Part shown: positions 5,165 through 29,472 of the stretch, one piece after another
How the letters are laid out: each line of letters opens with the position of its first letter
Numbering within the stretch: position 1 is the stretch's first letter
Source of the DNA: Nitrosococcus oceani ATCC 19707
GTDB lineage: Bacteria > Pseudomonadota > Gammaproteobacteria > Nitrosococcales > Nitrosococcaceae
NCBI RefSeq assembly: GCF_000012805.1
Contig: NC_007484.1
Span: forward strand, 1,740,001-1,772,000
Direction of reading: 5' to 3'
Length of the DNA stretch: 32,000 bases
Position numbers and translations under genes: made by a program
Notes under the pieces: generated by a model
Database searches by the model: none
What the model was told of the DNA's origin: nothing
What the model saw: the letters and a program-made list of their open reading frames with translations, nothing else

Positions 5165-6306
5165 TCAGCCTGGAGAATTCGCGTTTCTCAGCGGTCCTCG
5201 GGCGGTGGCTAGGCCACGGCCCTTGGGGTCTTGACCGCTCCACCTGCCTGCAGCAGGCAGGCGCACTTTAGAGGTTCCGGCGCTCCCCGCCGTACCGAAC
5301 AACACAACATTTTTGGCTGCGTTGATGTCCCTATCGTGGACAGCCCCACATTCACACACCCATTCACGGACTTTGCTGGTGGATGCCCAACGGTCCACGA
5401 TAAAAACATCACGGCCCTACCATTGGGCCTTATATTCAACCTGCCGCCGCAGTTCATACAGGCCACAGTCCGCAATGGCTCTGCTCAGGCGGCGGTTTCT
5501 TAACATTCCTTTGATATTCAAATCCTCCAGGCAAATCACTAGGTTCTCGCTCATCAACCTGTTGGATATTTAGTGCAAAAAATCCCGGCGGCTGTCTTTA
5601 ATCCGGGCATGGATTCGAGCGAGGCGGACTTGTTGCCTGCGCCTCCGCTGAGAGCCTTTCTTCTTGCTAGAGAGTCTGCGCTGCGCCATTCTCAGTTGCC
5701 GGGCATAGCGGTAAGTGTATTTAAGCGCGCCAGACCTCCACCCCTCGGAGGTGATGACCACATCCTTCACGCCGCATCCACACCGAAGGCATTCCTCCGC
5801 GCCAGCAGCCCATTCATCTCCACCTCACAGGCCATGCTGACGAAATAACGGCCCGCAGGGTCTTTATTCACCGTCACCACCTTGGGAATACCGCCTACCT
5901 CGCACGACCATTTCAACTTCAGCGCCCCAAGCTTGGGCAATATCAATCTCGTGCTCTCGGCGTTGAACTTCTTCGCTACATGGCGCTGGTCCAGTTGATA
6001 GCGTACCGATGGGGTGTGGTGGTGGCTTTTAAAGCGATGATAGCGAGCACGGCCAGAAAAGAAGTTCCTGAAAGCCGTGTCCTGTTCTTTGAGCTTTTTA
6101 GGTAGGGCAACCGGCGGTGGCTTCGCTAAAAGCCAAGGGCACGCCGTTTGCTTTAGCGCCGTCAACTGACGGTTCAGGATCGAATAGTTCAGCGACTCTT
6201 TGCTCTCCTTATACGCCTTCGTTCTCGTCTCCAGCGCCCAATTCCACACAAACCGGGCATGGCCGAACTCAATGGCCAATTGCCGCTTCTGCGTAGGCGC
6301 GCTATG
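5165..6306 (-). pseudogene. tnpB: tnpB (IS605 OrfB / RNA-guided nuclease family), inactivated
   Basis: Fragments read PTQKRQLAIEFGHARFVWNWALE..; GVDAA* (a 1-nt deletion in the GVDxGxKD RuvC-I motif near 5767); ..RRDFLH*ISNRLMSENLVICLEDLNIKGM.. (TAA stop, canonical RuvC-II E-D); YKAQW* (TAG); [17 protein letters not shown] (zinc finger and RuvC-III). About the first 10 codons are missing. Confidence 0.85.
5243..5261. repeat. 19-nt perfect palindrome, right-end copy
   Basis: The sequence is cctgcctgc-a-gcaggcagg, identical to the core of the hairpin at 6510-6540. Confidence 0.7.
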
Positions 6307-27416: not shown

Positions 27417-27524
27417 AGATAGTCCCCCCTGTTATATATCGACATAATTGTTGATCCCTATCAAATATAGGCCAAGAAGCCTCTCAGGTCCACGTTTATC
27501 AATCCCCGCCCAAGAGCCCTTCCT

Positions 27525-27686
27525 TCAGGGAGGGGATGTAGGGCGGTTCTGTTGCTCAATGTCGCGCTTAATTAAATCCTTGATGTACTCGGCAAGCGAA
27601 ATGCCCTTCTTTTCAGCTTCTCGTTGCGCCGATTCTTTGAGCCATTTTGGGAGCACCATTTCATATCTAATTTGGTTTGCCATCAT
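27525..27686 (-). CDS. Small ribbon-helix-helix (CopG-like) DNA-binding protein, 53 aa
   Basis: This ORF is not in the supplied track. It lies antisense to the spurious N-terminal extension of ORF 27448. The product is MMANQIRYEMVLPKWLKESAQREAEKKGISLAEYIKDLIKRDIEQQNRPTSPP, a strand (YEMVLP) plus two helices. A strong minus-strand promoter (TTGACT-N17-TAATAT) lies upstream. There is no obvious Shine-Dalgarno sequence. Confidence 0.6.
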   Translation of the reverse strand: MMANQIRYEMVLPKWLKESAQREAEKKGISLAEYIKDLIKRDIEQQNRPTSPP

Positions 27687-27693
27687 CGTGCGC

Positions 27694-27746
27694 TTGATTT
27701 ACGTAAAATATTACGTAATATTAGCACCTATGAGCACGGTAGTCAA
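27694..27746. promoter_or_regulatory. Face-to-face divergent promoters with tandem TTACGTAA palindromes (candidate RHH operator)
   Basis: On the + strand, TTGATT (27694-27699)-N16-TAATAT (27716-27721) ends 8 nt before the tnpB ATG. On the - strand, TTGACT (27746-27741)-N17-TAATAT (27723-27718). TTACGTAA occurs at 27699-27706 and 27711-27718, with centres 12 bp apart. Confidence 0.4.
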
Positions 27747-28821
27747 AACACTCAAAGTCCGCGTCAAAGACAATAAAGCCAACGCCTTAAACCGCATGGC
27801 TTTTGAGGTCAATCAGGTCTGGAATAACGCCAACGAAATAACGGCGGAGTACTCCAGTGTGCCTATGCCTGGGTTTGGCTATCTGCGTAGTAACTTCTCC
27901 GCCTACGATCTGCACCCCTTTCAGAAAAGATACCGAAAAGAGCGCGGACTTAATATTACGGCCCAAACGGTGCAGGAAGTGACTGAGGCCCACGCCAAAG
28001 CCCGTAGACAGTTCAAAAAAGATAAGCTGCGCTGGCGTGTTTCTGGTGGTCCGCGTCGTTCTCTAGGATGGGTGCCTTTCAAAAAGGGCGCGGCTAAATG
28101 GAAAAATGGCTGCCTTTATTTTGCTGGGCACTATTTTAAGGTCTGGGATAGCTACGGACTATCCAAGTACGAGTTCCGCTCCGGTTCTTTCTCTCAAGAT
28201 GCTAGGGGACGCTGGTATTTCAATATTGCCGTTAGCGTCCCTGTGGAGAAAACGACGGCGACCAAAGCAGTAGGTATGGACCTGGGTTTAAAGGATACCG
28301 CCACTTGTAGTAACGGTTTCAAACTGGAAGCGCACCGTTTCTACCGGAATGGAGAAGCGCAACTTGGAAAAGCGCAACGCGCTAACAAGAAAAAACGGGT
28401 AAAGGCTATCCATGCCAAGATCAAAAATAGGCGTTTAGATTCTATTCATAAATTCACAACCCAAGTGGTTCGTGAAAACGCATTTATCGTTGTGGGTAAT
28501 CTCAGCAGTTCCGGCCTTGCTAAAACCAAAATGGCCAAATCTGTTTTGGATGCAGGCTGGTTCATGCTGAAAACGATGATTGAGTACAAGTCCAAAAGGA
28601 CGCAATCGGAGTTCATAGAAGTCAACGAAGCGTACACTACCCAAGCCTGTTCGTGCTGTGGTTGTATCAGCGGCAGCAGTCCGAGAGGTAGGGCGGGACT
28701 TGGAATAAGAGAATGGTCATGCTCTGAGTGTGGAGCGCATCACGATAGAGACGTGAATGCAGCCATGAACATTCTCGCGGCGGGGCATCGCCGTCTCGCA
28801 GGAGGAATCCCCGTCCTTTAG
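27730..28821 (+). CDS. tnpB: TnpB-family protein (IS605 OrfB / RNA-guided nuclease family), intact ORF, non-canonical RuvC-II motif
   Basis: The ATG at 27730 gives 363 aa: MSTVVKTLKVRVKDNKANALNRMAFEVNQVWNN.. Motifs are RuvC-I VGMDLGLKD (D184), CxxC..CxxC (CSCCG..CSECG) and RuvC-III HDRDVNAAMNIL. The motif that is usually (V/I)-E-D-L reads VVGNL (G256, N257). The C-terminus ..GGIPVL* is typical of this family. Confidence 0.9.
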   Translation: MSTVVKTLKVRVKDNKANALNRMAFEVNQVWNNANEITAEYSSVPMPGFGYLRSNFSAYDLHPFQKRYRKERGLNITAQTVQEVTEAHAKARRQFKKDKLRWRVSGGPRRSLGWVPFKKGAAKWKNGCLYFAGHYFKVWDSYGLSKYEFRSGSFSQDARGRWYFNIAVSVPVEKTTATKAVGMDLGLKDTATCSNGFKLEAHRFYRNGEAQLGKAQRANKKKRVKAIHAKIKNRRLDSIHKFTTQVVRENAFIVVGNLSSSGLAKTKMAKSVLDAGWFMLKTMIEYKSKRTQSEFIEVNEAYTTQACSCCGCISGSSPRGRAGLGIREWSCSECGAHHDRDVNAAMNILAAGHRRLAGGIPVL

Positions 28822-28860
28822 GGCGGGGAGGATGTCAAGAGAAATCTGCCACGTTGCAGG
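28700..28860 (+). ncRNA. Candidate omega (right-end) guide-RNA scaffold of the tnpB element; extent is a guess
   Basis: This is by analogy only: TnpB omega RNAs overlap the 3' end of tnpB and the right end. The hairpin ccccgtcc-ttta-gggcgggg (28809-28828) is present. I could do no covariation or expression test. Confidence 0.25.
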
Positions 28861-28985
28861 TGCTCTTTTCTGGTAAGTCTCGAATTTAAAGAGGATGCCC
28901 TGCTCCAGGGGACTATTAGGACCACTCGTCATTAATATCCAGTGGGAAATTGAAATCGCCCGCCAAGCCGCGCTCGGCGTGGTAG

Positions 28986-29472
28986 GAGAAGCGAGGCGAT
29001 GCTCTAGGTTTTGAGTGGTTGGTGTTCGATGTTTTAACTATCTCGAAGTATCTCATTTTTCTGGTTGCGGCGATGCTGATTGCCCCTTTCGCTGGGCCTG
29101 CCATGAATGCAGCATTGGCCAGCGACTGGCCACTTCCATCTAATTCGGCGCAGCCTTGGCCGTTATATCCTCGGGCTGATAGTGACTGCCGGGGTCGCGG
29201 CGTTTCTCACTTGGATCTTCCGGTTGAGCGCAGCAACAAGTTTGATGGTGGAGGCGAATGCTCGTTTTACCCGGACTAATATTCCTGGGCAAAACTCACT
29301 CCTTGCCCTTGTCTATGTCCAACCCATCAAAACAATTATCCTTTCGGACGCTAATGAAGCCAAACTTAAACGGTACCTTGCCCATCAGATACAGCAACAC
29401 CTTCTGAAGGCCGGTTTCAATGTCACGCCTCTCGTTTCGGTGACAGTCCTTAAGCCACCCGAGGGAAACTAA
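28986..29472 (+). pseudogene. DUF389-family membrane protein remnant (5'-truncated, frameshifted)
   Basis: ..LVAAMLIAPFAGPAMNAALA (DUF389 motif AMLIAPLMGP) shifts frame near 29110 to ..GHFHLIRRSLGRYILGLIVTAGVAAFLTWIF.. The expected N-terminal domain is absent. Confidence 0.5.

Follow-up and report, generated by a model that had tools for sequence, protein, structure and literature searches.

A non-autonomous IS200/IS605-family element of Nitrosococcus oceani encodes a TnpB with a probably relocated RuvC-II glutamate

The product of the intact tnpB gene described here belongs to the known 'rearranged RuvC-II' type of TnpB and is most likely an active omega-RNA-guided nuclease, a reading to which we assign a probability of about 0.88. 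The gene lies in a stretch of 32,000 nucleotides of the Nitrosococcus oceani ATCC 19707 genome (contig NC_007484.1, positions 1,740,001 to 1,772,000), hereafter called the window. The genome comprises 3,522,111 bases in 2 contigs and contains at least 30 TnpB-like matches. In the encoded protein the canonical RuvC-II glutamate is replaced by glycine, and a glutamate located further downstream, Glu300, is predicted from sequence comparison to reach Asp184 and Asp341 in space. We infer the nuclease activity, that of the present copy included, as well as the TAM and the guide. The features of the locus are collected in Table 1.

Table 1. Features of the tnpB locus in the window (position 1 is the first nucleotide of the window)
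Feature	Positions	Strand	Basis or remark
Target/candidate TAM TTAT	27496..27499	+	directly 5' of left end
Non-autonomous IS200/IS605-family element with tnpB, 1339 bp	27500..28838	+	empty site in genome G002
Left-end subterminal nested hairpin; inner stem 27517-27523 with 27529-27535	27506..27546	+	DNA fold
53-aa ribbon-helix-helix (RHH, Arc-like) ORF	27525..27686	-	tnpA position, divergent from tnpB
Tandem palindromes TTACGTAA-AATA-TTACGTAA	27699..27718	.	candidate operator, RHH ORF/tnpB intergenic
tnpB	27730..28821	+	intact ORF, 363 aa (translation)
Asp184, RuvC-I (G-M-D-L-G)	28279..28281	+	invariant 64/64; on model strand 179-185
Gly256 (GGT), canonical RuvC-II Glu position	28495..28497	+	pairs with ISDra2 Glu278
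Asn257 (AAT)	28498..28500	+	codon reading
Glu300 (GAA), putative relocated RuvC-II Glu, motif V-N-E-A-Y-T-T-Q	28627..28629	+	invariant 64/64
Zinc finger CxxC...CxxC, Cys307/310/331/334	28648..28731	+	Cys in 79/81 loci
Asp341, RuvC-III, H-D-R-D = residues 338-341	28750..28752	+	invariant 64/64
Right-end/omega-RNA terminal hairpin, 9 bp, loop TTTA	28808..28829	+	spans tnpB stop codon
Near-invariant terminal GGATGTCAA	28830..28838	+	element end after TCAA
Predicted omega-RNA guide segment (flanking DNA read-through)	28839..28858	+	inferred from TnpB biology

Curated family models identified the product as a TnpB, all with scores above their cut-offs: NCBIfam NF040570 (guided_TnpB) matched with 237.2 bits (cut-off 100), Pfam PF01385 (OrfB_IS605) with 48.9 (cut-off 30.5) and Pfam PF07282 (Cas12f1-like TNB) with 83 (cut-off 26.3). 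The nearest named homologue is from Nitrosococcus halophilus. The first-pass annotation of this DNA, made from the letters and their translations, had named the motif residues and several of their codons, and translation and codon reading bore out all of these coordinates. RuvC-I with Asp184, the zinc finger and RuvC-III with its HDRD motif are intact in the protein, and Glu300 stands in VNEAYTTQ as had been described.

The same annotation had stated that the canonical RuvC-II glutamate is missing, and had asked for an alignment with characterised TnpBs that could reveal a mis-registered motif. When the protein was compared with PDB sequences by phmmer, 'FIVVGNLSSSG' was placed over 'EIIGTEHLKPD' of ISDra2 TnpB (8bf8/8h1j), so that Gly256-Asn257 occupies the canonical site and Gly256 sits on the catalytic Glu278. 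A profile of 64 homologues aligned with the same ISDra2 TnpB gave an identical register, and both phmmer and the profile paired 'VNEAY-TTQ' with 'VSPYFPSSQ' of ISDra2. The absence of the canonical glutamate was thereby upheld. As an internal control, we aligned by MAFFT nine canonical TnpB paralogues from the same genome, which are 34-38 % identical to the protein; in all of these, positions 255-258 read [LM]-E-[DT]-L and positions 299-300 read D/P-R. The two patterns are reciprocal: the paralogues carry Glu256 and Arg300, whereas the protein studied here carries Gly256 and Glu300. Another TnpB of the window (5165-6306, minus strand) belongs to a different lineage and is broken by several stops and frameshifts; it has the canonical L-E-D-L motif, reading ...VICLEDLNIKGM... 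at 5519-5530 as previously noted.

Relatives of the protein number in the thousands: a word index gave 7535 hits, and 15,728 cluster representatives, canonical TnpBs among them, matched at E <= 1e-3. To describe conservation we used 64 near-full-length representatives with 35-77 % identity. Asp184, Glu300 and Asp341 were each present in 64/64 representatives, and position 256 was Gly in 63 of them and Pro in one. Cys310, Cys331 and Cys334 were invariant in this set and Cys307 was kept in at least 90 %. When the query was added to 80 loci from genomes, Gly256 was found in 81/81 and Glu300 in 78/81. Because of this retention, the Gly256/Glu300 pattern is a character of the clade and not a chance lesion. 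Comparison with the closest intact copy gave a dN/dS ratio of 0.20; for more distant copies, where dS is saturated, the ratio was about 0.1. Two other candidates for the compensating residue were rejected: Glu297 is kept in only 35/64 representatives, and residue 257, Asn in the present protein, is Asn or Asp across the clade.

A link to a solved rearranged active site came from a phmmer comparison in which residues 277-355 served as the query. T291-Q-S-E-F-I-E-V-N-E300 aligned with Y458-G-T-E-V-V-N-V-N-E467 of ApmFanzor2, the Fanzor2 of Acanthamoeba polyphaga mimivirus (PDB 9b0l), and H-D-R-D341 aligned with A-D-R-D501 of the same protein. By this alignment Glu300 is homologous to Glu467, a glutamate whose catalytic role is experimentally established. 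The catalytic triad of ApmFanzor2 seen by cryo-EM is Asp324/Glu467/Asp501, with Glu467 displaced by about 50 residues relative to the canonical site, a trait of Fanzors and of 'TnpB2/pro-Fanzor' proteins (PMC11832414). Cleavage by ApmFanzor is abolished by E467A, and all Fanzors and TnpBs with Pro or Gly in place of the canonical Glu hold a conserved alternative Glu about 45 residues off (PMC10530073). The archaeal TvTnpB, which has the rearranged site, cleaves in a TAM-specific manner and shows no collateral activity (PMC10530073). The largest rearranged group, RIIr-5, has Gly in place of Glu together with a Glu that compensates for it, and has been likened to RuvX, whose Glu is found on beta-5 instead of beta-4 (PMC10691335).

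The predicted fold was in line with this comparison. An AlphaFold2 model computed from the 64-sequence alignment reached a pLDDT of 92.4 and a pTM of 0.83, and the full TnpB fold (WED-REC-RuvC-TNB) was recovered in this model. Foldseek matched it to structures over their whole length: the TnpB of ISFba1 (TM 0.77, E 9e-19), ISDra2 TnpB (0.75) and ApmFanzor2 (0.70). In the model the strand 250-257 carries Gly256 at its end and Glu300 follows directly after the strand 294-299; these positions match the described shift from beta-4 to beta-5. Both residue features of the rearranged class were found in the protein, namely a non-acidic position 256 and a conserved Glu 44 residues downstream, after beta-5.

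The boundaries of the element were defined by a precise empty site in a genome of the same genus (G002), which reads ...GGTTTAT/GAGAAATATGCC... (slashes mark the junctions). The corresponding junctions in the window are ...CGTTTAT/CAATCCCC...GGATGTCAA/GAGAAATCTGCC..., so that GGTTTAT/GAGAAAT of the empty site stands against TTTAT/CAATCC...GTCAA/GAGAAAT of the window. According to this comparison the left flank stops at 27499 and the right flank begins at 28839, with no target-site duplication at the element junctions; homology to fragments elsewhere in the genome likewise stops at 28838-28840. Insertion 3' of TTAT and the lack of a target duplication are hallmarks of the IS200/IS605 family, and the empty site shows that the element was recently mobile. 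TTAC precedes the sister copies in three other genomes (G001, G003 and G004) and TTAT precedes eight Denitrificimonas copies. By analogy with IS608 and ISDra2, TTAT/TTAC (TTAY) would be the TAM. Beside the insertion, the right flank at about 28918-29060 is not collinear with G002 (about 140 nt here and about 800 nt there), which represents an indel.

The right end of the element is strongly conserved. In nearly all relatives the hairpin and GGATGTCAA stand at the end, and the sequences diverge completely past TCAA. Across 48 distinct right ends of relatives, 91.4 % of the cells of the hairpin were paired as compared to at most 68 % in slid controls, and double-sided changes occurred in 7 of the 9 pairs; none of 500 shuffles reached the observed values. 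The final 241 nt before the right end gave a fold z score of -3.8, which is compatible with a predicted omega-RNA whose sequence overlaps tnpB at its 3' end. A search with Rfam revealed no family at gathering score across the whole window. At the left end, the motif CCCNNCC-TTYA-GGNNGGGGATG is also located just past the tnpA stop in autonomous relatives.

Of 80 related loci, at least 17 carry a divergent Y1 TnpA, and all five of the TnpAs that were scanned with Pfam matched PF01797 (E 1e-28 to 1e-45). The element in the window lacks a Y1 TnpA and retains only a vestige of the tnpA 3' end. Since it has no TnpA of its own and some of its relatives do, we regard it as a non-autonomous derivative. 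The genome holds one intact copy and two 3' fragments of this element family, and two intact Y1 TnpA genes that belong to other elements. One fragment (2039304-2039775 of contig C1) shares 96 % DNA identity with the element and the other (3135483-3135813 of contig C1) 72 %; both stop exactly at the right end (GGATGTCAA) and possibly represent solo omega-RNA/right-end remnants. Several genomes of relatives are multi-copy, and G001 contains at least four internal-deletion derivatives in which the left end is retained together with about 110 nt from the 5' end and about 430 nt from the 3' end.

The place of tnpA is taken by a small ORF with an RHH pattern. Its Pfam matches, to HicB and CopG, were all sub-threshold. 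The last codons of this ORF (IEQQNRP) match the C-termini of TnpAs, and the DNA beneath its C-terminus matches the tnpA 3' end of autonomous relatives. These matches point to a replacement or deletion of tnpA that spared its last codons. The ORF as a mere degraded tnpA was rejected: its C-terminus is tnpA-like, and the rest is an RHH pattern conserved in five sequences. Its homologues comprise four database proteins with 77-100 % identity, and the ORF is kept in G004. Arc-type RHH repressors of IS605 elements have been described in a 2026 preprint (bioRxiv 10.64898/2026.09.24.754181). Upstream of tnpB, where the window has the tandem palindromes, another perfect palindrome, ACACAATATATTGTGT, is found in the sister copy of G004 (L094); the dyad symmetry is kept while the sequence is changed, as expected for an operator, for which these palindromes are a candidate. 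In addition, a related element of Allochromatium warmingii (L018) carries a small RHH-like ORF (MKFDTYRKLKKAATDEDISFAHMIDSLLDLYKRE..., L018:2790-2921, minus strand) between its left end and tnpB, which has no detectable sequence similarity to the RHH ORF of the window.

How the parts would work together can be outlined as follows. Gly takes the place of the canonical Glu at the end of the RNase-H strand beta-4, and Glu300, at the end of beta-5 and 44 residues downstream, would complete the triad with Asp184 and Asp341. The protein would then be the omega-RNA-guided DNA endonuclease of the non-autonomous element. Its omega-RNA scaffold would overlap the 3' part of tnpB and end at ...GGAUGUCAA, with the guide running into the right flank. 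Such a complex would cut the element-free allele, in which TTAT is followed by GAGAAATCTGCC..., and homologous repair of the cut empty allele would retain the element.

TnpB2/RIIr (PMC10530073, PMC10691335) is among the closest known systems, and we found no essential difference between it and the protein studied here: Gly, rarely Pro, at the canonical RuvC-II Glu, an alternative conserved Glu that follows beta-5 at a distance of about 45 residues (44 in our protein), intact RuvC-I, RuvC-III and zinc finger, and an IS605 context with relatives that have Y1 TnpA. With RIIr-5 the protein shares the Glu-to-Gly character. TvTnpB, the member examined by experiment, comes from an archaeon and is only distantly related to our protein. 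ApmFanzor2 (PDB 9b0l; PMC11832414) shares the V-N-E-x-x-T-T motif, but it comes from a eukaryotic virus, is 520 aa long, possesses an N-terminal extension as well as an NLS, and lies outside any IS200/IS605 element. ISDra2 TnpB (8bf8/8h1j/8exa) resembles the protein in fold, domain order and zinc finger, and probably also in serving its transposon as a homing nuclease with a 3' omega-RNA; however, its triad is the canonical D191/E278/D361, whereas the present protein has Gly at the 278 site and would draw the acid from the next strand. With respect to the element, we note TTAT/TTAC targets, the TCAA end, the lack of a duplication and hairpins at both ends as IS608-like traits. IS608 of Helicobacter pylori inserts 3' of TTAC, has TCAA at its right end, generates no target duplication and carries subterminal hairpins at both ends, together with tnpA and a TnpB with the canonical site. 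In contrast, the element in the window has the Arc-like RHH ORF where tnpA would be, and a TnpB with a rearranged site.

The first-pass annotation had left two readings side by side, a relocated glutamate and a dead nuclease of the TldR type, and had held that sequence alone could not choose between them. This latter view did not hold, as comparative sequence analysis can discriminate: the invariant Glu300 corresponds to Glu467 of ApmFanzor2. The relocated glutamate gained strong support from this invariance and alignment, and the TldR-type reading was disfavoured by the intact C-terminus and the mobile element. Under the TldR-type reading, the protein would be an RNA-guided DNA-binding protein with an inactivated RuvC that represses a target gene, which we consider very improbable. 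It shares with TldRs its origin from TnpB and a non-canonical DED, the canonical RuvC-II Glu is missing, the genome has a single intact copy without tnpA, and a repressor-like RHH gene adjoins tnpB. However, TldRs typically have lost at least two DED residues and/or the C-terminus, and the authors who described them name a pattern such as the present one as a source of false dead calls (PMC10705468). In TldRs the catalytic loss is uncompensated, the C-terminal zinc finger/RuvC-III is often gone and the gene is fixed beside fliC or oppF without transposon ends (PMC10705468); the protein studied here shows neither the DED/C-terminal loss nor the status of a fixed non-transposon gene. A single DED position is altered and is accompanied by an invariant, presumably compensating Glu homologous to a proven catalytic one, and Asp184, Asp341 and the four Cys are present, so that the zinc finger and RuvC-III are complete. 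Moreover, the gene lies within left and right ends, a relative has the empty site, there is no fixed host-gene neighbour, and the sister copies are multi-copy and TnpA-associated.

An unlikely but somewhat more serious alternative is that the clade is active and the present copy is a functionless relic, stranded without its cognate transposase and too young for decay. That the genome holds one intact copy and two truncated ones, and that tnpA is missing from the element, was counted against the activity of the present copy. Such a fate would also agree with the small ORF in place of tnpA and with the state of two sister copies: in G004 the best segment covers residues 1-256 only and contains an internal stop, and in G001 (L100) it covers residues 144-363 only. 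On the other hand, all 363 codons are intact with every catalytic and zinc-binding residue present, the dN/dS of about 0.2 points to past purifying selection, TnpA is not needed for TnpB homing, and the genome contains two intact Y1 TnpA genes at other places. Although its rearranged triad looks intact, the gene is single-copy, without tnpA and under an Arc-like regulator, and the host or the element could have recruited it for some function besides homing, for example to bind or repress under RNA guidance or to nick DNA by an altered chemistry, in which case the Gly/Glu arrangement would modulate or abolish double-strand cleavage in the clade; we regard this as very unlikely. The chance that the motif was mis-registered and a canonical RuvC-II Glu lies misaligned nearby is negligible. 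We found no point in its favour, and it was refuted by three independent alignments (phmmer, the 64-sequence profile, and MAFFT with the nine paralogues), each of which put Gly256 on the canonical Glu; the neighbouring residues are V255 and N257, and there are zero acidic residues in 250-262.

The rearranged class has already been published (as TnpB2 by Jiang et al. 2023, PMC10530073, and as the RIIr clades by Altae-Tran et al. 2023, PMC10691335), and the tnpB product is an ordinary member of it, so that the locus opens no new question. For the annotation of TnpB proteins it offers a caution: before a TnpB that lacks the RuvC-II Glu is called a dead nuclease, its beta-5 position (V-N-E-x-Y-T-T-Q) should be inspected. 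At the same time, the locus is a compact (363 aa) and cleanly bounded bacterial example of the rearranged class, and its defined left and right ends, candidate TAM (TTAY) and predicted guide start could be used to probe how the relocated Glu affects cleavage and collateral activity.
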